Part shown: piece after piece, positions 1,980 through 27,985 of the stretch
Layout of the letters: every line of letters begins with the position of its first letter
Position numbering within the stretch: position 1 is the first letter of the stretch
Virus record (IMG/VR): IMGVR_UViG_2609459774_000007
Location: 1-27,985 of that record
Direction: 5' to 3' (one strand)
DNA: 27,985 nt
DNA from: a virus
Taxonomy: Duplodnaviria; Heunggongvirae; Uroviricota; Caudoviricetes
Made by a program: the position numbers and the translations under genes
Notes under the pieces: model-generated
Database searches by the model: none
What the model was told of the DNA's origin: nothing
The model's input: the letters and a program-made list of their open reading frames with translations, nothing else

Positions 1980-3080
1980 TTATTCCATTTCAAGATCATC
2001 AATCCTCACTTCAAGCTCCAGACTGGTCGTAAAACCGTTATCCGGGCTGACGGTATGCGTCAGAGTCGTAATGGTCCATTCCGCATCATCTATCGGCTGT
2101 TTAAAACCACTGACTTTCACTGGCATTTCCGTGTAGAGATCTGCCCGACCTTCCGCCAGTTGTAGCGAGAATGACGCAACGCCGCGTTGCAGGCGTTCCC
2201 ACTGCATTTTCGCTGCCCGTTCAGCGTTACTCCGATTAGCATAGGTGCGATTAAGTACCAGCACGTTTTCATCCGTACCCACCAGGTAATCGCCCTGCTT
2301 CGCTTCCGGCTCTTTCTTCTGCTTCTTAGTCCTGCGCTTACGCTTCACCGTAGTGCTTTCTTTCTTCGCGGGTTCGCGGGTATGCAACCAGCTGGCAATT
2401 ACGCCCGTGTAGGCTCCGCGATCTGCCAGGGTAAAGCGGTGGCTGTCGCCGTCCTTGCGTGTGATAGTGATCACTGGCAGAGGTTTACCGCTGGCGCTTT
2501 TGCCCTGTCCCTGCCGGATGAATAACAGATTGCCATTTTTCACCGACGCAATAGCACCGTACTGGCGCGCCAGCCGCATCAAAAAACTGCCGTCACTCTC
2601 ATTGGTCTGGTCTATATGATCCACGGGCTTATCCGACAGATCTTTACCCAATGCCATCTTCAGTTTGTGCCGCGCAGCTATTTCCTTCACCACTTCCCCA
2701 ACGGTGGTCTTGTGCCACGACTTTTCACGGCGGGTATTCAGCGTTTCCCGAAAATCAGCACTTCGCGCCCGGATAGTCAGTCGGTCCGGTGCGCCAGTGT
2801 GTTCAATCTCGTCCACCGTGAATGCCCCTTTCGGGAAAAGCGGCTGCCCCTTCCAGCCCAGCGCCAGCGTAATGACCGCACCACGGCGCGGCAGCACTAT
2901 TTTTCCATCGGCGTCGTCCAGCTCCAGATCAAGCTGGTCCGCTTCAAAGCCCCGGTTATCCGTCAGCGTCAGCCTCATCAGGCGGTTATCCAGCACAGTG
3001 GTGATATCCCTGCCCTCAATACTGATGCTGAATGCGGGAGTTTTGTTGCCTTTGTTAAGCAGTTCAGAGCTGAAATTCAC
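1980..3080 (-). CDS. D: P2 gpD-like tail protein (late control gene D family)
   Basis: 366-aa ORF placed immediately upstream of ogr on the same strand, the conserved D-ogr arrangement at the end of the P2/186 tail operon; the length and position fit gpD. Confidence 0.8.
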   Translation of the reverse strand: MNFSSELLNKGNKTPAFSISIEGRDITTVLDNRLMRLTLTDNRGFEADQLDLELDDADGKIVLPRRGAVITLALGWKGQPLFPKGAFTVDEIEHTGAPDRLTIRARSADFRETLNTRREKSWHKTTVGEVVKEIAARHKLKMALGKDLSDKPVDHIDQTNESDGSFLMRLARQYGAIASVKNGNLLFIRQGQGKSASGKPLPVITITRKDGDSHRFTLADRGAYTGVIASWLHTREPAKKESTTVKRKRRTKKQKKEPEAKQGDYLVGTDENVLVLNRTYANRSNAERAAKMQWERLQRGVASFSLQLAEGRADLYTEMPVKVSGFKQPIDDAEWTITTLTHTVSPDNGFTTSLELEVRIDDLEME

Positions 3081-3418
3081 GACATCAGCCCTCCCACCGT
3101 TTTACTGATATCGCTTAAGGCAGATGTTGCCGTTTCCTGCAGATTATTCAGTTGCGCACTGAGATCACCGAACATATCGGACAGGGATTCATCCACCCGT
3201 TTGAGCGACAGGGTGAACTCAATCCGGCGCGGCATACCGTCGCGGAAAAACTCCGTTTTAGTCTGATTCAGTCCCTCAATCACATACATGCCGTAAATCG
3301 TGCCGCTGCCTTCAATCAGAGGCCATGCTTTCCCCTGTTCTGCCATCTGCTCCAGTGCCAGCAACGACAGCCTGCCGCCTGTTATCTCCGGCATAAGAAC
3401 ACCGGAAAGCGTCAGCAT
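3077..3418 (-). pseudogene. U: P2 gpU-like tail protein, N-terminally truncated fragment
   Basis: 113-aa ORF (TLSGVLMPEITGGRLSLLALEQMAEQGKAW...) matches the C-terminal two-thirds of gpU as I recall it; overlaps the D start by 4 nt as in intact tail operons; the N-terminal part is missing. Confidence 0.65.
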
Positions 3419-3459
3419 GTCGTTTTCCGGTCCCAGAAACTGCGTGGACGGACGTCGGT

Positions 3460-4185
3460 TTACCCGACTGTTTGCCGCATGTCGCCAGCTGCGTTGATAC
3501 TGCAGTTGTCTTCCTGCCAGTAGATGGACAGGTTATCCAGACGGGTGATCAGCAGCGCATTCGGCGGGAAGAACGGCGCACGCACGGCCTGCAGGCCACC
3601 CATGCGTTTCTGGCTGATGATCATATCGGCAGCCAGTTTTTCACTGTTTTCCTGCTCTTTGTTGACCAGCGGGAAATACTTGTCAGACAACAGTTCACGA
3701 CCGCAAATCACCACCAGACCGTCATCGTCCTGGTAAACCACGTCGATAAGCTCATTGACGGCATCCATCACCACAGCGTCCAGGTTGGCATATTCGCCAC
3801 CTTTCCCGACTTTCACCGCACCCGGAGTGGTTTCACCGCCCGTGGTGGTGCTGCCCATGACGTGATCCGGTGCATCCTCACGGATTTTCTGCAGCCAGCC
3901 TTTGTTCACATCCTGCAGCAGCGGGTTTTCGCTACGGTTGGAGGTTTTCGCACGCTTCACGCCGTTAAAGCCGATCATGATGCGGTCCAGTGCCTGACGT
4001 TTCACGATGGCGTCACGGATGCGCACCTGGAAATCCTGAAACTTCGCCCACAGATCCAGCTTCGCGTAGGTCAGCACCGTGTCAAAGTTGGTCTGCTCGC
4101 ATTTATATTCCACATCGACCATCAGGGTCGGATCGGTGAAGTGATCGCCCTTGAGCCTGCGCTGGCAAAATACACCCGACGCGGA
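3460..4185 (-). pseudogene. N: P2 gpN-like major capsid protein, internal fragment (both ends missing)
   Basis: The 220-aa ORF (3460-4122) aligns with the middle of P2 gpN (YKCEQTNFD...LDLWAKFQDFQVRIRDAIVKRQ...GFNGVKRAKTS...VISQKRMGGL...LSIYW). The frame extends upstream to a stop at 4186-4188 without N-terminal homology, and the C-terminus diverges after SIYW. Confidence 0.75.
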
Positions 4186-4540
4186 TTAGACCTGGATACC
4201 TACTGGTTTGTGCAATACGGTATGACAACCCAGCCGTATCAGTTCACGAAAGGCAGCATTTTTCATCTGATGGAACCCACTGTAGAGCCAGCCCCTTCTC
4301 TTCATCACTACACTCACTAGCCGCTACAAGCTTAAGAAAAAAATCAATGCGCTGGAGCTTCAAAGACTCCAAAAAATAGTCCTGCATCTTTCCTCCTATA
4401 ACACCACACGCAATACTGTATGTATAACCACTGTTTATATTTACAGTATATAATAATCTTACTGATGTAAAACGTTTTTTTACATTCATCAGCCTGATAT
4501 GCCTGGTATTATTAAGAGCACGAATTGTTAACCCGCGTAA

Positions 4541-6955
4541 TTAATACAGGTTCCGCCACTGATCATCTTCCTGCAAACGCTGGTTCCGATAGAAGATACG
4601 CAGGCCTGCTCCTGACGGAATACTGCCTCCGCGAAGGAGTAAATCGATCTCTTTCTCGCTGCCATCAAATCCTCTGGACTTCAGCTCATACACGAGCTGC
4701 AGTCGCTGATGGTCTGTAATTCGCTGTTTGTAGTCTTTACGCCGTTTCGGTTTCACCAGGCGTAACCTTGCTGCCAGTTCCCGGCGCTCTTTTTTGCTCA
4801 TACTGTGCAGGTAATCGTGCAACTCCTTGTCATCCATGCTGGTAATGTCCGTTCTGGGGTCCCCATCAGCTGATTTATCTTTCTCCTGTTGGTTCAAATT
4901 TTCAGCAAGGGGACAGTTATTGCCACGAGTCCAAGGGGCGCAAGCGCCCTGGTCGGCTGCCGCCTCCTGAACGTCAACGGCCTTACGAACCATTTTCCAC
5001 TTCACTGCATGAGTGCAGATCTTGCCCTCTGCAATGGGTGACCAGATGCCATAAATACGAATGCCGTGATCGCCATAGGCGGTCGGCTCTTCGTTGATTT
5101 CATAAGCGGTTCTGATCAGGTGATATTTGCGGGGAACCAGTACGCCGCCCTGCTTCATGATGTAGGTGGCAAAACAACCAGCATCAGCAGCAGCCAGGAT
5201 TGCATCAAGGCGCGGGTTATCCAGTACCGGCGCACCTGCTTTTTTGTCCCCCTGTTGCCTTGCCGCCTGACCAGCCAGCAATCGCAGTTCACGGTAAGCC
5301 TGACGCCCCGGAATGCCAAAGAAGCGGAATTGCTGAACACGATGCAGAGACGCCCAGGCATTAACGTATTCAGCATTATCACGCAGGGATTTCCCCGTTT
5401 CCTTGCTGATCTCGCCAGCCAGACCACGCCCGTCAATGTTCTTACTGATGTATTTCGCGATGTAGCTTGTTGGCGTACCTTTGCGCGGGTTAATCAACTC
5501 AGACTTAAAGCGCGGCCCAGTGTTATTGCCCAGCTCCTCGCGGTCTTCACGGATGGCAAACTTACGCAGTAATACAGTGATGGCGCGGCGGTCTTTTTTG
5601 CGCATAAAACACAACAGGTGCCAGTGAACTGTACCGTCATGATGCGGCTCAGCCACCCGCACGCCATACCAGCGCAATCCGGCTTTGTGCATCGCCTTAC
5701 GAAATGCAGCAAACATGCCGACCAGGTAATCACTACTTTGTCTTACCGTCGCATTTGTCCAGGTTGGGTTGGGCCTGCCGTTATTTAGCGTGGAATGGAA
5801 ACGTGACGGACAGGTGATGGTGTAGAAAACGGCACAGTCACTGCGCATTTCAGCGATAAGCTCCAGACCTTTAACACAGGCCATCATCTCATTGCGGCGA
5901 TGCGCCGGGTTGCTGCTGCTGGCGTTTACCACATCTTCCATATCCAGCGTGTCACCGTCTTCGTTCACCAGTTCATGAGAACGGAAAAACTCCAGCGACT
6001 TACGGCGCTGCTCACGTTTATGCATCACGGCTTCATAGCTGACATAGGGAGATGCTTTTTTGCTGACCAGACAGACAGCACGCAACTGCTCTTCCCGCCA
6101 TTCGCAACGCATCTTCCATAATTTCCTATACCACCAGTCGGCGCACAGCATACGCGCCAGCGAACCCGGAATGAGTTCATAGGGCACGGGTTTACGGCGG
6201 TTTCTTTTCCGACGGAGTTGCTCAAACGCAGGCGGGATGACATCCAGTCGCAGGGTTTCTGCTGCCACCTTTTCCCATGTCTTGCGGATTTCTTCTGGCT
6301 TAACATCATCGGTGGCGTACAAATCACCACAAGCGGCATCAAGACACATGCTCATATGCGCAGCGACAAGAGTAGACAGGCGTTTCACCTGATCCTGACT
6401 CATTTCAGGCAGGATCAGCAGGCCGTCCAGCCCTTCATGGCTTGCCATAAAGCGAAAAGAAGTGGATAGCTGACTCTCGCGTACATGCTCCAGTCGTTCC
6501 AGACATGGCTTAATCGTCTCACGCAAATAGCGGGAATAAGCCTTTGGCCTGCCCAGGCTGCTGAAGTATTCGATACGTTGCATCAGCGGCTTGCTGATGT
6601 GGGTGGGCTGGGCGCTGACATCTGCCAGAATGACCATGTCTGGGTTAAAACGCTGCTGCTCATGCGCCAGCTTTGCCCGACTAATGAGCTTATCCTGCTC
6701 CATTTCGCGCTGGACAGGATCACGGGATTCATTAAAGAAATAACGCTCCCAGACCTGATCACTCAGTGCCTCACGGCGCAGCAGTTCCTGCTCGTTATCG
6801 GCAGCGTACAGAGTGATCAGGTTTGAAAGCGCAGAAACCGGCGCAACTTCCGCCGGGTCCAGATAAGGGTTAATGGCCTTTTTCGGGCTGTTCCATGAGA
6901 ACGATGCGGAAGCCTCGTTAAAGCCGCAGCAGTTGTTCATATCGGCATGGTTCAT
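4541..6955 (-). CDS. A: P2/186 gpA-like rolling-circle replication initiation endonuclease
   Basis: 804-aa ORF with the HxH metal-binding motif (VHWHLL) and the paired-tyrosine motif YIAKYISK typical of phage gpA initiators; located between the early regulatory genes and the structural gene remnants. Confidence 0.85.
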
Positions 6956-7917
6956 GCACGTACTCCGTACACGGCAGAACTATCCACGCCACGCGAATAA
7001 TCAAATCCCACCCAGCAGCGCGGCCCGGAAACAGCGATGATTTCTGTTGCAGATTTACTCTCACCAGCTGCTACGCCGATGCTGCGTTTTGCCTTGATGT
7101 AGTGGTGAGTAAAATTGCGATACAGCGAACGGATCAGGGATGTGTCACTGTTAGAAATAATGACCGGATGTCCTTCTGATGACCGATGTTCAAGAACGGA
7201 TGCCAGGTGATACTGGTCATCTTCAGTGAAGCCGTCAGTGTGATAACCGGAAAACGTGCCGTCATACGGCGGATCGCAATACACCACATCCCCCGCCTTC
7301 AACATCGCCAGCGTTTCATCAAAGCTGGCGCAGATAAACGTTGCCCGCTGGGCTTTTTCTGCAAATGCGCGAATTTCTTTTTCAGGAAAATACGGATTTT
7401 TATAATTACCGTAGGGAATGTTGAAATGCCCGCTCTTGTTATAGCGACATAAACCACGGTAACCGTGACGATTGAGATACAGGAAATATACCGCTTTCAT
7501 GAAATCAGTAATTTCAGTTGAGTAATTAAACTCCTGCCTTATGTTGTAATAAGCCACCTCCCTGTTTGCTTCCTCAAATAAAGCTCTGGCGCGAGATATA
7601 AACGATTCACAATCAGCAGCAACCTTTTTATAGAGGTTGATTAAATCAGGATTAATATCCGCAACAAGATAGCTGGGGTAGTGGATCTCCTGCGCTTCGT
7701 TCTGGATTGCTTCAGCGGTCACACGCAGCAGTTCTGCCGCTTCGACGTGGTTTAGCTGGCGGGATGTGATATGACACGCAAGACTATCAAGGCGGGCAGC
7801 CATTGCTTCAGCCCTTGCCCGGCGTTCTTCCAGACGAGCCTCTGTCAGTAAAATATTAAGCCCTGCGTCATCCGGTCCGATTTTAGTCGTGAGGGTTTCA
7901 ATATTACGCATAATCAA
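6952..7917 (-). CDS. Dam-like N6-adenine DNA methyltransferase (D12 class) with a non-canonical N-terminus
   Basis: Residues ~85-300 align with E. coli Dam from the ADIN(S/P)DLI(S/N)LY segment through FLYLNR.GY.GLCRYN, PYFPE and the catalytic DPPY motif (VVYCDPPY). The first ~85 aa are unrelated and the KWAGGK/FxGxG region is not seen. Confidence 0.8.
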
Positions 7918-12712: not shown

Positions 12713-12761
12713 ATGTAGGAATTTCGGACGCGGGTTCAACTCCCGCCAGCTCCACCAAATA
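12713..12761. repeat. attachment-site direct repeat, copy 2 (partial ssrA 3' end; attR of the P2-like element and attL-type junction of the P4-like island)
   Basis: Exact 49-bp repeat of 1016-1064; the sequence upstream of it is unrelated to ssrA, so this is only a partial ssrA copy. Confidence 0.85.
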
Positions 12762-22163: not shown

Positions 22164-25100
22164 ATGGCAAAGATGACCGAATCCGATATTGAAGTAATGG
22201 CAATTGAGCACCTGCAAGGGCTGGGCTATGAGTATGTTTACGGCCCGGACATTGAACCCAGTGGAATCAATCCGTTACGTAGCTATCAGCAGGTTATCCT
22301 TGAAGATAAAGTGCGTACAGCATTGCAACGAATTAACCCGCACCTTAGTGAGCAGAAGTGTGAAGAAGCTCTAAAACAGGTGATGCAGATCAGCTCACCT
22401 GACCTAATGGCAAACAATCTAACCTTTCATCGCCTTTTGACCGAAGGAATCAATATCGAAGTCAGCAAGGATGGTAATACACAAGGAGAACTGGCCAGCC
22501 TGATCGACTTTAACGATCCCACTAATAATGCATTTCTGGTCATTAATCAGCTCACCATCAAAGAAGGCAACCATACCCGCCGACCTGATCTTATTTTATT
22601 CATCAATGGCCTGCCATTAGTCGTTATCGAACTTAAAAATGCCGCTGACGAAAATGCAACGGTAACAGGTGCCTATAATCAGATTAAAACCTATCAGAAC
22701 CAAATCCCCGGTCTGTTTAACTACAATGCTTTTAATGTGATATCTGACGGGCTGGAAGCCAAAGCGGGGACGGTTTCTGCCGATTTCAGTCGTTATATGA
22801 CGTGGAAAACTGCTAACGGTAAAACGCAAGCCACCAGTACCCAACCACAGCTTGAAGTTTTATTACAGGGGTTGCTTAATCCTGTAACGCTGCTGGATAT
22901 AATCCGCCACTTTATCGTGTTTGAGGCCAGCAAACATGAAGACAGCAAAGGGATTATCAGTATCCGTACTGTTAAAAAAATGGCGGCTTATCACCAGTAC
23001 TACGCGGTCAATGCAGCAGTTCTTTCCACTATTCGTGCCTCAGCGGTGAATGCGGACTCCCCCTCTGCCGAAGTGGCACTGCGCCAGCAGGGACGTAACA
23101 GTAAAGATCTTGTTAATGCGCAAAAAACCGGAGATCGCAAAGCGGGCGTAGTCTGGCATACTCAGGGTTCCGGTAAATCGCTTTCGATGGTGTTTTATAC
23201 CGGGAAAATTGTGCTGGCGCTGGATAATCCGACAGTTGTTGTGATTACTGACCGTAACGACTTAGATGATCAGCTATTCGGTACGTTCTCTTCCGCGACC
23301 CAGCTACTTCGTCAGACACCAAAACAGGCCAACAACCGGGAAGAACTCAAAGAATATTTGCGTGTCGCCTCTGGCGGTGTGGTGTTTACTACTATTCAAA
23401 AATTCCAGCCTGATGATGGCAGCAATATCTATGAGTTGTTGTCAGACAGAACCAATATTGTCGTTATCGCTGATGAAGCACACCGTTCCCAGTACGGTTT
23501 CAGCGCCAAAGAAGTTGACGTGAAAGACAGCGAAGGCAACGTAACAGGTAAACGCACCGTTTACGGCTTTGCCAAATATATGCGTGATGCCTTACCTAAT
23601 GCGACCTATCTCGGCTTTACCGGAACCCCCATAGAAAAAACGGACGTCAACACGCCTGCTGTTTTTGGTAACTATGTTGATATCTACGATATCTCGCAGG
23701 CCGTTGAAGATGGTGCAACAGTTCGTATCTTTTATGAAAGCCGTCTTGCCAAAATTGCCATCAGTGATGAAGGTCGTCAGCTTATTGAAGACTTTGATGA
23801 TGAGTTTAACGAGGACGAACTGACGCTCACGCAAAAAGAACGTTCTAAATGGGCCAGAATCGAAGGTTTGATTGGCAGTTCAAAACGTATTAAAGCGATT
23901 GCGGCGGATATGGTTCTGCACTTTGAGCAGCGCTTAAAATCCAATGCCGATCATGGTAAGGGCATGATTGTTACCATGTCCCGCCGTATTGCTGCTGAAC
24001 TATATAAAGAAATCATAGCCTTAAAACCTGAATGGCACAGCGATGATTTAAATGACGGTATAATAAAAGTCGTCATGACCTCTTCTGCTGCTGACGGGCC
24101 AGAAATTGCCAAACACCACACCACAAAAAAAGAACGTCAGGTTCTGGCTAACCGTATGAAGGATGACGACGACAAGCTGAAACTGGTGATAGTGCGTGAT
24201 ATGTGGTTAACCGGCTTCGACGCTCCCAGCATGCATACGCTGTATATCGACAAACCAATGAAAGGCCACAACCTTATGCAGGCAATTGCCCGTGTGAACC
24301 GTGTGTATAAAGATAAGATAGGCGGTCTGGTTGTTGACTATCTGGGCATTGCCTCTGATTTAAAAGAAGCCCTCTCCTTTTACTCTGATGCAGGTGGACG
24401 TGGAGATCCTGCTGAGGTTCAGGAAGAAGCCGTAACGCTCATGCAGGAAAAGCTGGAAATCCTGGAAGGCATGATGCATGGATACGATTACAAAGCTTAC
24501 TTTGCCGCAACTACCTCACAACGCCTGACAATTATTCTTGAATCAGAAAACCATATTTTAGGGCTGGATAACGGTAAAGGTAAAATGCGTTTCCTCGCTG
24601 CGGTTGCAGCCTTATCGCAGGCATTTGCATTGGCGACACCGCACGATAAAGCAATGGAAGCGGCACCCGAAGTAGCATTCTTCCAGGCAGTAAAAGCCAG
24701 ACTGAATAAATTTACTGAAAACTCAGACGGATCAGAAGAAGAACACAATGACAGTCTCGAAGTTCGGGTAAAACAGACTATCGATCAGGCTCTGGTTACC
24801 GATAAAGTTGTTGATATTTTTGACGCTGCTGGGATACAAAAACCTGATATTTCCGTTCTTTCTGAAGAATTCCTTCAGGAAATGAAGGATTACCAACACA
24901 GAAATATTGCTTTGGAAACGCTTAAAAAACTGCTTTCTGACGAGATCAAGGTTCGCTCGAATCAAAGTATCACCCAAGGCAAAAAACTGATTGATATGCT
25001 GACCTCTGCAATCAATGGCTACCAGAACAAGGTACTGACCGCAGCGGAGGTAATTGATGAGCTAATCAAGCTTGCCAAGACTATCCAGGAATCTGACAGC

Positions 25101-25403
25101 CTTGCCAGCCAGTTAAACCTCAGCGCTTATGAATATGCCTTCTATTCTGCTGTTGCAGATAACGACAGTGCTCGCGAGTTAATGGAAAAGGAAAAACTAC
25201 GAGAACTGGCAGTCGTACTTACGGAGGCTATCCGCAACAATGTCAGTCTTGACTGGACAGTGAAAGAAGCAGCAAGAGCAAAAATTCGCGTGGTGGTAAA
25301 ACGTCTGCTCAAAAAATATGGTTATCCGCCTGATATGTCATTGCTCGCCACAGAGACTGTTTTGAAGCAGGCTGAACTTTTAGCTGGAGAATTAGGAAAA
25401 TGA
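22164..25403 (+). CDS. hsdR: type I restriction-modification system, restriction (helicase/endonuclease) subunit
   Basis: 1079-aa ORF with an N-terminal nuclease region and SF2 helicase motifs including DEAH (VVIADEAHRSQ); RBS AAGGA upstream. Confidence 0.92.
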   Translation: MAKMTESDIEVMAIEHLQGLGYEYVYGPDIEPSGINPLRSYQQVILEDKVRTALQRINPHLSEQKCEEALKQVMQISSPDLMANNLTFHRLLTEGINIEVSKDGNTQGELASLIDFNDPTNNAFLVINQLTIKEGNHTRRPDLILFINGLPLVVIELKNAADENATVTGAYNQIKTYQNQIPGLFNYNAFNVISDGLEAKAGTVSADFSRYMTWKTANGKTQATSTQPQLEVLLQGLLNPVTLLDIIRHFIVFEASKHEDSKGIISIRTVKKMAAYHQYYAVNAAVLSTIRASAVNADSPSAEVALRQQGRNSKDLVNAQKTGDRKAGVVWHTQGSGKSLSMVFYTGKIVLALDNPTVVVITDRNDLDDQLFGTFSSATQLLRQTPKQANNREELKEYLRVASGGVVFTTIQKFQPDDGSNIYELLSDRTNIVVIADEAHRSQYGFSAKEVDVKDSEGNVTGKRTVYGFAKYMRDALPNATYLGFTGTPIEKTDVNTPAVFGNYVDIYDISQAVEDGATVRIFYESRLAKIAISDEGRQLIEDFDDEFNEDELTLTQKERSKWARIEGLIGSSKRIKAIAADMVLHFEQRLKSNADHGKGMIVTMSRRIAAELYKEIIALKPEWHSDDLNDGIIKVVMTSSAADGPEIAKHHTTKKERQVLANRMKDDDDKLKLVIVRDMWLTGFDAPSMHTLYIDKPMKGHNLMQAIARVNRVYKDKIGGLVVDYLGIASDLKEALSFYSDAGGRGDPAEVQEEAVTLMQEKLEILEGMMHGYDYKAYFAATTSQRLTIILESENHILGLDNGKGKMRFLAAVAALSQAFALATPHDKAMEAAPEVAFFQAVKARLNKFTENSDGSEEEHNDSLEVRVKQTIDQALVTDKVVDIFDAAGIQKPDISVLSEEFLQEMKDYQHRNIALETLKKLLSDEIKVRSNQSITQGKKLIDMLTSAINGYQNKVLTAAEVIDELIKLAKTIQESDSLASQLNLSAYEYAFYSAVADNDSARELMEKEKLRELAVVLTEAIRNNVSLDWTVKEAARAKIRVVVKRLLKKYGYPPDMSLLATETVLKQAELLAGELGK

Positions 25404-25448
25404 TTCCCTAAATTTTTAGCATATAAACTATTTGGTAATGGTCCCAAC

Positions 25449-25826
25449 TTATTGATAGTGTTTTATGTTCAGATAATGCCCGATTACTTTGTCATGCAGC
25501 TCCACCGATTTTGAGAACGACAGCGACTTCCGTCCCAGCCGTGCCAGATGCTGCCTCAGATTCAGGTTATGCCGCTCAATTCGCTGCGTATATCGCTTGC
25601 TGATTACATGCAGCTTTCCCTTCAGGCGGGATTCATACAGCGGCCAGCCATCCGTCATCCATATCACCACGTCAAAGGGTGACAGCAGGCTCATAAGACG
25701 CTCCAGCGTCGCTATAGTGCGTTCACCGAATACGTGCGCAACAACCGTCTTCCAGAGCCTGTCATACGCGTAAAACAGCCAGCGCTGCCGCGATTTAGCC
25801 CCGACGTAGCCCCACTGTTCGTCCAT
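25449..25826 (-). CDS. insB: IS1 InsB' transposase frame (expressed as an InsAB' fusion by -1 frameshifting)
   Basis: 125-aa ORF from the first Met matches the C-terminal ~125 aa of InsB ([23 protein letters not shown]...HYLNIKHYQ); the frame extends further upstream, overlapping insA. Confidence 0.8.
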
Positions 25827-26113
25827 TTCCGCGCAGACGATGATGTCACTGCCCGGCTGTATGCGCGAGGTTGCCGACTGCGGCCTGAGTTTTTTAAGTG
25901 ACGTAAAATCGTGTTGAGGCCAACGCCATTCATGGCCATATCAATGATTTTCTGGTGCGTACCGGGTTGAGAAGCGGTGTAAGTGAACTGCAGTTGCCAT
26001 GTTTTACGGCAGTGAGAGCAGAGATAGCGCTGATGTCCGGCAGTACTTTTACCGTTACGCACCACCCCGTCAGTAGCTGAACAGGAGGGACAGCTGATAT
26101 AAACAGAAGCCAC
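25712..26113 (-). CDS. insA: IS1 InsA, variant (11-aa in-frame deletion; stop codon lost, extended to 133 aa)
   Basis: The first 65 aa match InsA, then the segment CRATARIMGVG is missing (MNGVG|LNTI), and the canonical TAA after ...GRSR reads CAA so the frame runs on to 133 aa. The frameshift motif TTAAAAAAC is retained. Confidence 0.8.
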
Positions 26114-26632
26114 TGGAGCACCTCAAAAACATCATCATACACTAAATCAGTAAGTTGGCAGCATCACCCCTTCCTGGCTGTTGAAAAAGACTACGCTGCT
26201 TAAATTTTAAATGAGCATCCTCAAGCCGAATAACTTAAAGGATGCTCTTCAAATTTTAATAAGAATTATCAACAGCAAAAAACCTCATAAAAAACACTAC
26301 TCATTTAATTTCCAAAATTAAGATGAACATTAATAACCACCATTATATTACATGATCTTTTCCATATCCTATAGCATTACTCTCTATAGTATTAATATCT
26401 GAGCCTCTAATTATCTCCTTTATACAGATTAGTTCCAATATGGATAAATATTCTTGTGAAAATGGTTAATCCACATCACATAGGATAACCTTAACGTCCC
26501 TATGTTCCATTAAGTTAAGAATAACCTTAAGCAAACCAAATCAGATACCCCCTAATAAAACAAAAATAAATTTGAATACCGTAAAATCTGGTGTCATTAA
26601 TATCTTGAAAACAACAAAAAAGGAGATAAACA

Positions 26633-27502
26633 ATGATATCAAGAGAAAATAATAAAAATAACCTATTCCGTGTAAAGTCTAAAAATGGTGTCCTTCGTTG
26701 CCTTAAGGCTGGCATGGATATAAATATGTGCAATAGTAAAGGTCAAACTGCTCTTTTTACCTGTAATGTACCTGAAGCTATACAGGCAATGATTGACGCT
26801 GACATTGACATTCACCACTTGGATAATGACGGTAATAATGCATTATTCTATGCTCAAAATGTTGAAACAGTGGAACTTCTTGTCAGCAATGGTATTAATG
26901 TTAACCACCGGAATAAGTCAGGCACCCTTGCGATTCAACATATTGATGTTTCACCAGGGTTAGTAAAATATCTTATCAAAGCAGGACTAGATATCCATAC
27001 CAAAGATAGCTATGGCAATTCCTTTCTTTTCATTCCATTTGAAGGATATGTGTACGATGCACTAATTGAGGCTGGTTGCGACATTAATCATAAAAATATA
27101 AGTGGACAGACAGCATTCGATCACTGGCAGTCAGAAAATAATAGCATAGTTGGTAAATATACGCACTGGGAATCTAAAAACGATAACTACATTCGTTTTC
27201 TTATCCGTAATATTCATCTTAAAGACAGTTCAAAAATTGTATTCACGAACATTACATTTAAATCAATTGAGCTGTTGTCGTTACTTATAAAGCAAAAAAA
27301 TGAATTTGAGATAAGTGATAAGTGCATTATCACACCAACAAATGCCGACGCTAAAAAATTAATTTTACAACTAAAGAAGCTGACAGACATTAGTCATGTT
27401 TGGTTTTACATAAGCAGTACATATCTACTGACGCACTATGCAGGAAGACTGCTAATTAAATTGGATTTGCCCCTATATTTCCAGACATCTGTTATCACTT
27501 AA
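26633..27502 (+). CDS. ankyrin-repeat protein, 3' end interrupted by the IS2 insertion
   Basis: AT-rich ORF with a strong RBS (AAGGAG) and repeated ankyrin-like units (GQTALF...; [11 protein letters not shown]...[15 protein letters not shown]; KSGTLAIQH...; DSYGNSFL...; ISGQTAF). The last ~14 codons (from 27460) are IS2 terminal sequence, so the native C-terminus is lost. Confidence 0.7.
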
Positions 27503-27985
27503 CCCATTACAAGCCCGCTGCCGCAGATATTCCCGTGGCGAGCGATAACCCAGCGCACTATGCGGATGCCATTCGTTATAATGCTCGAACGCCTCTGCAA
27601 GGTTCTTTGCTGCCGTTAACCCGTCTGGTTTGGGCATGATACTGATGTAGTCACGCTTTATCGTTTTCACGAAGCTCTCTGCTATTCCGTTACTCTCCGG
27701 ACTCCGCACCGCCGTGTTCTTCGGTTCAAGTCCCAACATCCGGGCGAACTGGCGTGTTTCATTAGCCCGGTAGCATGAACCATTATCCGTCAGCCACTCC
27801 ACTGGAGACGACGGAAGATCGTTGCCGAAGCGGCGTTCCACCGCTCCCAGCATGACGTCCTGTACTGTTTCACTGTTGAAGCCGCCGGTAGTGACCGCCC
27901 AGTGCAGTGCCTCACGATCACAGCAGTCCAGCGCGAACGTGACACGCAGTCTCTCTCCGTTATCACAGCAGAACTCGAACCCGTC
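27460..27985 (-). mobile_element. IS2 insertion sequence, partial (continues beyond the window end)
   Basis: The terminal sequence at 27460-27500 is the reverse complement of the IS2 end (...GTGATAACAGATGTCTGGAAATATAGGGGCAAATCCA), and the adjacent ORF is IS2 InsD. Confidence 0.85.
27473..27985 (-). CDS. insD: IS2 transposase InsD (OrfB), 5'-partial at the window edge
   Basis: Matches the IS2 InsD C-terminal region (...[44 protein letters not shown]...[19 protein letters not shown]...); the frame continues in-phase upstream to the window end ([44 protein letters not shown]). Confidence 0.9.

Follow-up and report, generated by a model that had tools for sequence, protein, structure and literature searches.

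The window analysed here, a stretch of 27,985 nucleotides, holds an IS1 copy between the restriction gene hsdR and an ankyrin-repeat gene, and this locus raises two linked questions, namely whether the copy is still a mobile element and what happened to the DNA in which it lies. The feature is most probably an ordinary decayed, non-autonomous IS1 copy that marks an old IS1-associated deletion in an ssrA-integrated island.

Boundaries and coding content of the IS1 copy

The IS1 terminal-repeat pattern matched twice, each time at an end of the element (0 matches in 100 shuffles), and these two inverted-repeat matches define an element of 735 bp on the minus strand. Its terminal inverted repeats of ~23 bp begin GGTRATG...CCAACTTAYTGAT, as expected for the IS1 family, and both lead to the coordinates that the first-pass annotation had read from the sequence (a 735-bp element at 25434-26168). 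Alignment to the reference element, IS1A of Escherichia coli K-12 (768 bp; NC_000913.3 19796-20563), leaves a single 33-bp gap, outside which the identity is ~97%. The best E. coli matches share 99.9% identity over the full 735 bp, and an identity of at least 99% is reached in 240 records; the exact 735-bp sequence of the window is absent from complete E. coli genomes, where the nearest sequence is 99.9% identical. The parts of the element are as follows:

25434..26168, minus strand: IS1 with a 33-bp internal deletion (735 bp versus 768 bp, by alignment to K-12 IS1A)
25434..25456, plus strand: right inverted repeat, IRR (GGTAATGGTCCCAACTTATTGAT), with GTC at positions 8-10 versus ACT in IS1A, a lineage marker
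25449..26113, minus strand: insAB' through a -1 frameshift, 221 aa open, DDE_Tnp_IS1 complete (PGAP WP_223349789.1)
25712..26113, minus strand: extended insA* ORF with GTG start, 133 aa, composed of the zinc ribbon, the truncated helix-turn-helix (HTH) motif and an out-of-frame read-through across insB'
25871..25873, minus strand: former insA stop, TAA changed to CAA (TTG on the plus strand)
25889..25895, minus strand: A6C (AAAAAAC) programmed -1 frameshift motif, intact
25920..25927, minus strand: deletion junction, the sole GGCGTTGG repeat that was kept
26146..26168, minus strand: left inverted repeat, IRL (GGTGATGCTGCCAACTTACTGAT), same as the canonical sequence

The copy resembles K-12 IS1A and IS1E (consensus, 768 bp) in its insA/insB' layout, its A6C motif, its zinc ribbon, its DDE_Tnp_IS1 domain and its identical IRL. 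Indeed, (i) the insA and insB' frames overlap, the TTAAAAAACTC motif is present, the fusion frame is open over 221 aa and a programmed frameshift is annotated by PGAP, (ii) the zinc ribbon is complete (Zn_ribbon_InsA PF03811, 71.5 bits, profile positions 1-35 of 35), and (iii) so is the catalytic domain (DDE_Tnp_IS1 PF03400, 253 bits, profile positions 1-131 of 131). It differs from IS1A and IS1E in its length of 735 bp, in the loss of HTH residues 66-76 and of the insA stop, in seven other InsAB' changes (S5Y, V92A, V102I, S130R, R132W, M145I and G149E relative to IS1A), in three base changes in the IRR and in the absence of a target-site duplication. A sequence search of solved structures returned no relative of the IS1 transposase.

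The 33-bp gap is flanked in IS1A by two 8-bp GGCGTTGG repeats, and the residues missing from both InsA and InsAB' are CRATARIMGVG (equivalently GVGCRATARIM), which make up the first helix and the turn of the HTH motif. The IS1A alignment thereby bears out the earlier proposal of an in-frame 33-bp loss of CRATARIMGVG between GVG-encoding repeats. The HTH motif of the copy is incomplete: the profile HTH_Tnp_IS1 (PF12759) scores 53.6 bits versus 98.4 bits in IS1A, and the match consists of 33 residues over 44 profile positions, 11 positions being missing. A single-sequence AlphaFold2 model of the 133-aa InsA* has two helices after the zinc ribbon, at a mean pLDDT of 40, which is too poor for any conclusion. 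The primary source for the requirement of the HTH motif and the zinc finger is reportedly Ohta et al. 2004. Zinc finger and HTH motif are common to InsA and InsAB', and both are needed for the binding of IS1 ends (PMC12903888, PMC12428005); the IS1 transposase acts mostly in cis (PMC12903888, PMC12428005).

The extension of InsA to 133 aa by a change of the insA TAA to CAA, also put forward by the first-pass annotation, was confirmed by the alignment and by the ORF itself, and the same base change is the V92A substitution of InsAB'. The copy is labelled 'IS1 family transposase' by PGAP/RefSeq, as intact and with no pseudogene flag, because InsAB' still exceeds the family score cut-off (211 bits versus a cut-off of 100 for NF033558, the NCBI IS1 model). 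No paper linking IS1, insA and a 33-bp deletion was found in the literature searched.

The missing Kiwa genes and the spread of the island

The 9-bp flanks of the element differ (left, AAACTATTT; right, CCTTCCTGG), so that a target-site duplication is missing, and this remark of the first-pass annotation still held on re-examination. The ancestral arrangement was sought with 220-bp probes spanning each IS1 junction, and a minority of genomes was found in which the flank runs on without IS1. In two of these, E. coli MB06022 and 2273-PO3 (loci L008 and L009), the gene order is hsdM-hsdS-hsdR-kwaA-kwaB-ankyrin-hypothetical-ankyrin-...-relaxase. According to BLAST, the left flank of the window ends at position 6200 of L008, 30 bp past the hsdR stop, and the right flank resumes at position 7763, 35 bp before the kwaB stop. 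The IS1 copy therefore stands in place of exactly 1,562 bp, which comprise kwaA and kwaB minus its last 35 bp, and the breakpoints are clean at both IS1 ends. The host sequences concerned are:

22164..25403, plus strand: hsdR (type I restriction subunit R), intact, upstream of the IS1 copy and 30 bp from it
25404..25433, plus strand: left flank, first 30 bp of the native hsdR-kwaA spacer, with the left breakpoint after 25433
26169..26203, plus strand: right flank, last 35 bp of kwaB (FLAVEKDYAA*), the sole Kiwa remnant
26633..27502, plus strand: ankyrin-repeat gene, native Kiwa neighbour, with its 3' end cut by IS2

Kiwa (kwaA plus kwaB) is thus missing from the window apart from these last 35 bp of kwaB, whereas the flanking genes are the same as in the Kiwa island of MB06022, 2273-PO3 and E24377A, and the island backbone shared by the window and the Kiwa-bearing loci is 97-99% identical. 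The absence of a target-site duplication is explained by the 1,562-bp deletion. These Kiwa-intact genomes supply the comparison that had been called for in order to reconstruct the region downstream of hsdR, and they uphold the suggestion of an adjacent deletion or recombination event involving the copy. The abrupt shift from hsdR to an AT-rich ankyrin gene, which had been cited alongside it, is real (30 bp, with a GC content of 0.454 in hsdR versus 0.327 in 26169-27461); however, the ankyrin gene is not an import but a native neighbour, which lay 1.56 kb further off in the Kiwa-intact islands.

The distribution of the allele was followed in 5,426 complete E. coli genomes with a 44-mer probe that seeds only across the 33-bp junction. 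The deletion junction was present in 283 of them, at 287 places (median of 1 per genome), and it had no match on E. coli plasmids in the same set; for IS1 in general, the median is 11 places in each genome. Since 283 independent complete assemblies have the junction in common, it is not an artefact of sequencing or assembly. When the two host-IS1 junction 44-mers were combined as a probe for the locus, 292 genomes were detected (574 places), 282 with both junctions and 10 with one, while the native hsdR-kwaA junction is kept in at least 29 complete genomes, E24377A included. In strains APEC O78 and 042, PGAP annotates hsdM-hsdS-hsdR followed by an 'IS1 family transposase (programmed frameshift)', an ankyrin-repeat protein and IS2. 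In a wider search, with a single genome for each bacterial species, the deletion junction had one match, in Kluyvera cryocrescens NBRC 102467, where the two junctions are identical and the ankyrin gene is intact (328 aa). The identity of the junctions together with the deletion implies that the island already held the deleted IS1 at the time of the intergeneric transfer.

The order of the two mutations within the element can be read from the same genomes. The Kluyvera copy (locus L010) differs from that of the window at three positions (G37, T296, i.e. TAA kept, and C684), the copy of E. coli C 236-04A has TAA with A684, and that of E. coli MSB1_9I has TAA plus a block of IS1A-type bases at 325-621. 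CAA is found in APEC O78 and 042, whose copies differ from that of the window at position 37 only. As Kluyvera and some E. coli copies with the deletion keep TAA, the 33-bp deletion predates the loss of the stop. The CAA allele was found in 238 records, ~231 of which are at the hsdR-ankyrin locus. Among the copies at this locus, only that of the window has G37A, given that the nearest full-length match is 99.9% identical; the change occurs in 7 genomes, mainly in IS1A-type copies at other loci.

Downstream, an IS2 terminus (TGGATTTGCCCCTATATTTCC...) starting at 27462 (27462-27985) truncates the ankyrin-repeat gene, which encodes 289 aa in the window versus 328 aa in Kluyvera, MB06022, 2273-PO3 and MSB1_9I. 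PDC-M72A, a candidate defence model of PADLOC, is weakly matched by the ankyrin-repeat protein (E 4e-11), and the two ankyrin genes located after Kiwa and the type I restriction genes in the ancestral island may belong to the defence cargo.

Exchange among IS1 copies

The deletion allele and the hsdR junction are also encountered in other IS1 contexts. In E. coli ST540 (locus L007, NZ_CP007390.1), a chimeric full-length IS1 (4201-4968) lies at the same hsdR junction; it combines ~50 bp of window-type IRR with an IS1A-type remainder and directly abuts the tRNA-Ile (ileY) side. This arrangement is the product of recombination of the hsdR-adjoining copy with another IS1, by which the ankyrin genes and the remaining island were lost.

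On the Klebsiella pneumoniae IncL/M plasmid pRIVM_C016570_2 (locus L004, 2778-3512), an IS1 with the same 33-bp deletion lies inside ISEcp1, upstream of blaCTX-M-14, and is flanked by the 8-bp sequence CCCTTTTT. On the E. coli plasmid pBEC1-S17-ESBL-07_1 (AP022296, locus L011), this very position in ISEcp1 is taken by a full-length IS1 that has a 9-bp duplication, CCCCTTTTT. When these two IS1 copies are compared, the Klebsiella one carries an interior patch, made up of the deletion and eight window/Kluyvera-type bases, and both of its ends are of IS1A type. Transposition of a 735-bp element onto the Klebsiella plasmid was considered and rejected, as the site is shared with a full-length IS1 and the patch is interior only; instead, the comparison of the sequences indicates that the plasmid IS1 gained the deletion allele by gene conversion.

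A haplotype table displays a similar mosaicism in MSB1_9I and in copies at a pheV site. The E. coli strains WP2-S18-ESBL-08 (locus L005) and TUM1880 (locus L006) each have a mosaic IS1 with the 33-bp deletion (2778-3512 in both loci) in a pheV-associated island, adjoining an 'esterase-like activity of phytase' gene, and these two copies have a common right flank and different left flanks, with no obvious duplication. The deletion alleles at the pheV site may have arisen by gene conversion, by recurrent slippage or by rare mobilisation in trans. A deletion-bearing IS1 at a new site with a duplication of its own was never seen. Today, the hsdR-adjoining copy is very probably a mere patch of IS1 homology, which recombines with other IS1 copies into larger deletions (ST540) and trades sequence with them through gene conversion (Klebsiella plasmid, MSB1_9I).

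The stop-loss base has a wider distribution: the E. coli plasmids pTB202 (locus L016) and p13C1065T-3 (locus L017) have a 768-bp IS1 next to mobH, also with CAA, which has a divergent 5' haplotype and is called a pseudogene with an internal stop by PGAP. The stop-loss base thus exists independently of the 33-bp deletion.

Route of the deletion, mobility and significance

We infer the order of the Kiwa deletion and the 33-bp loss, as well as the route of the former, as follows. A full-length IS1 would have landed beside Kiwa, most likely in the AT-rich hsdR-kwaA spacer. The 1,562 bp with kwaA and nearly all of kwaB were then lost; the product of this step is visible in the genomes, and its preferred route would be an intramolecular replicative transposition from the IRL end, with a target inside kwaB, i.e. 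an IS1 adjacent deletion. Slippage between the 8-bp repeats would subsequently have dropped 33 bp in frame, with the putative effect that neither the InsA repressor nor the InsAB' transposase binds the IS1 ends and that self-movement is lost. The island with this copy then spread, as its distribution attests, to several E. coli lineages and to Kluyvera, and one sub-lineage of E. coli acquired CAA in place of the insA stop, to which the window adds G37A.

An adjacent deletion from an insertion in the hsdR-kwaA spacer is favoured because one insertion suffices and because IS1 is a classic, textbook former of adjacent deletions. It is less likely, but quite possible, that two direct IS1 copies flanked kwaA-kwaB instead and that RecA-dependent recombination excised the interval, leaving flanks that stem from different insertions. 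Such an exchange would require two independent IS1 insertions within 1.6 kb, one of them at the right breakpoint, in GC-richer coding sequence, which is less typical for a primary insertion of IS1; on the other hand, it would operate without an active transposase and would consequently fit even if the 33-bp deletion came first, and the ST540 chimera proves that the hsdR-adjoining copy did recombine with another IS1, with loss of DNA out to ileY. Intermediates were sought with synthetic queries, one with IS1 at the left site with the AAACTATTT duplication plus kwaA, the other with kwaB plus the CCTTCCTGG duplication and the IRR. Both matched the native empty site only (29 genomes), and none of the 5,426 genomes combined an IS1 at one of the two sites with an intact Kiwa system, which also speaks against two insertions. 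Both adjacent deletion and recombination between IS copies are well documented as events that remove target-site duplications, and the latter frequently accounts for an absent duplication (PMC11708052). The present locus resembles these documented cases in that a single IS replaces a host stretch, with breakpoints at the IS ends and no duplication (PMC11708052); it is the same in kind, its specific point being that the lost cargo was the two-gene Kiwa anti-phage system.

Regarding mobility, autonomous transposition has very likely been lost, a prediction drawn from the fall of the HTH score, from the published requirement for the HTH motif and from the single-copy state in ~282 genomes. The intactness of both frames, of the frameshift site, of the DDE domain and of both inverted repeats counts against a defect, and could be taken, with the complete zinc ribbon and the open 221-aa InsAB', as a sign that the 735-bp element is a functional natural isoform of IS1, in which the loss of 11 residues is tolerated because the preceding helix (KIIDMAMNG) replaces the deleted one, and which would still transpose on its own. 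PGAP names the product as a transposase and not as a pseudogene, and at least four IS1 sequence backgrounds contain the deletion allele, one plasmid copy having an 8-bp flanking repeat. A functional isoform is nevertheless very improbable: the plasmid site also holds a full-length IS1 with a 9-bp duplication, so that the duplication would date from an earlier full-length insertion, the HTH profile match is halved, and the element is single-copy in ~282 genomes despite a median of 11 IS1 places in each. Moreover, far milder changes immobilise K-12 IS1B, IS1C and IS1D (PMC12428005), which have 9 substitutions each and are essentially immobile in their native state (PMC12903888, PMC12428005).

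A role for the copy in the host is less probable still. HTH-less InsA* and InsAB' might be kept for a beneficial activity in trans, for instance as dominant-negative proteins versus IS1 transposases, and the copy would then be a domesticated regulator. The frames are still open in both E. coli and Kluyvera, and an InsA unable to bind its own promoter would presumably be derepressed, the repression by InsA being reported as 17-fold (PMC12903888). However, the 2-3 substitutions between copies are too few for a signal of purifying selection, the sole coding change kills the insA stop and appends 53 out-of-frame residues, and the carrier genomes still hold many other IS1 places, which makes such a retention extremely unlikely. 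It is likewise exceedingly improbable that the 33-bp allele, self-propagating or selected, spreads by gene conversion among resident IS1 copies while its products dampen IS1 in trans as a poison subunit; the idea of a spread by conversion comes from the allele being seen on the Klebsiella IncL/M plasmid and at the pheV-island site, and, if true, the allele would be a natural IS regulator of the poison-subunit type.

As a decayed copy, the element is best compared with K-12 IS1B, IS1C, IS1D and IS1F, which are likewise resident with open frames (PMC12428005, PMC12903888), have no measurable native transposition and serve as substrates for recombination or for a transposase supplied in trans (PMC12428005, PMC12903888). 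These four are full-length and have point substitutions only (e.g. L81F in the HTH motif), whereas the copy in the window has a deleted HTH helix and a read-through insA. IS decay and IS-associated deletion are a known kind of event, and the general importance of this case is small. Three practical points can be made. For annotation, hundreds of genomes have a copy labelled 'IS1 family transposase' despite a truncated DNA-binding motif, and as such copies are labelled intact, annotation-based counts of 'active' IS1 are slightly inflated. For defence, ~282 genomes, including APEC O78 and 042, lost Kiwa by one IS1-associated deletion while at least 29 keep it, and the Kiwa-less and Kiwa-bearing islands provide a natural with/without comparison on a single backbone. 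For epidemiology of the island, the two junctions plus the deletion are a clean marker of its horizontal spread, Kluyvera included. In addition, the locus offers an example of how IS1 copies recombine and undergo gene conversion with one another.

Further upstream in the window, the 3' end of ssrA recurs as a perfect direct repeat of 49 bp, at 1016-1064 and 12713-12761, with 11.7 kb in between. This segment, which APEC O78 does not have, contains P2-family genes, namely a truncated major capsid gene, the gpA replication gene and genes for a Dam-type methyltransferase, CII/CP76, an integrase and the CI repressor. The segment represents what is left of a P2-like prophage that integrated at ssrA, where it forms a tandem with the restriction island.
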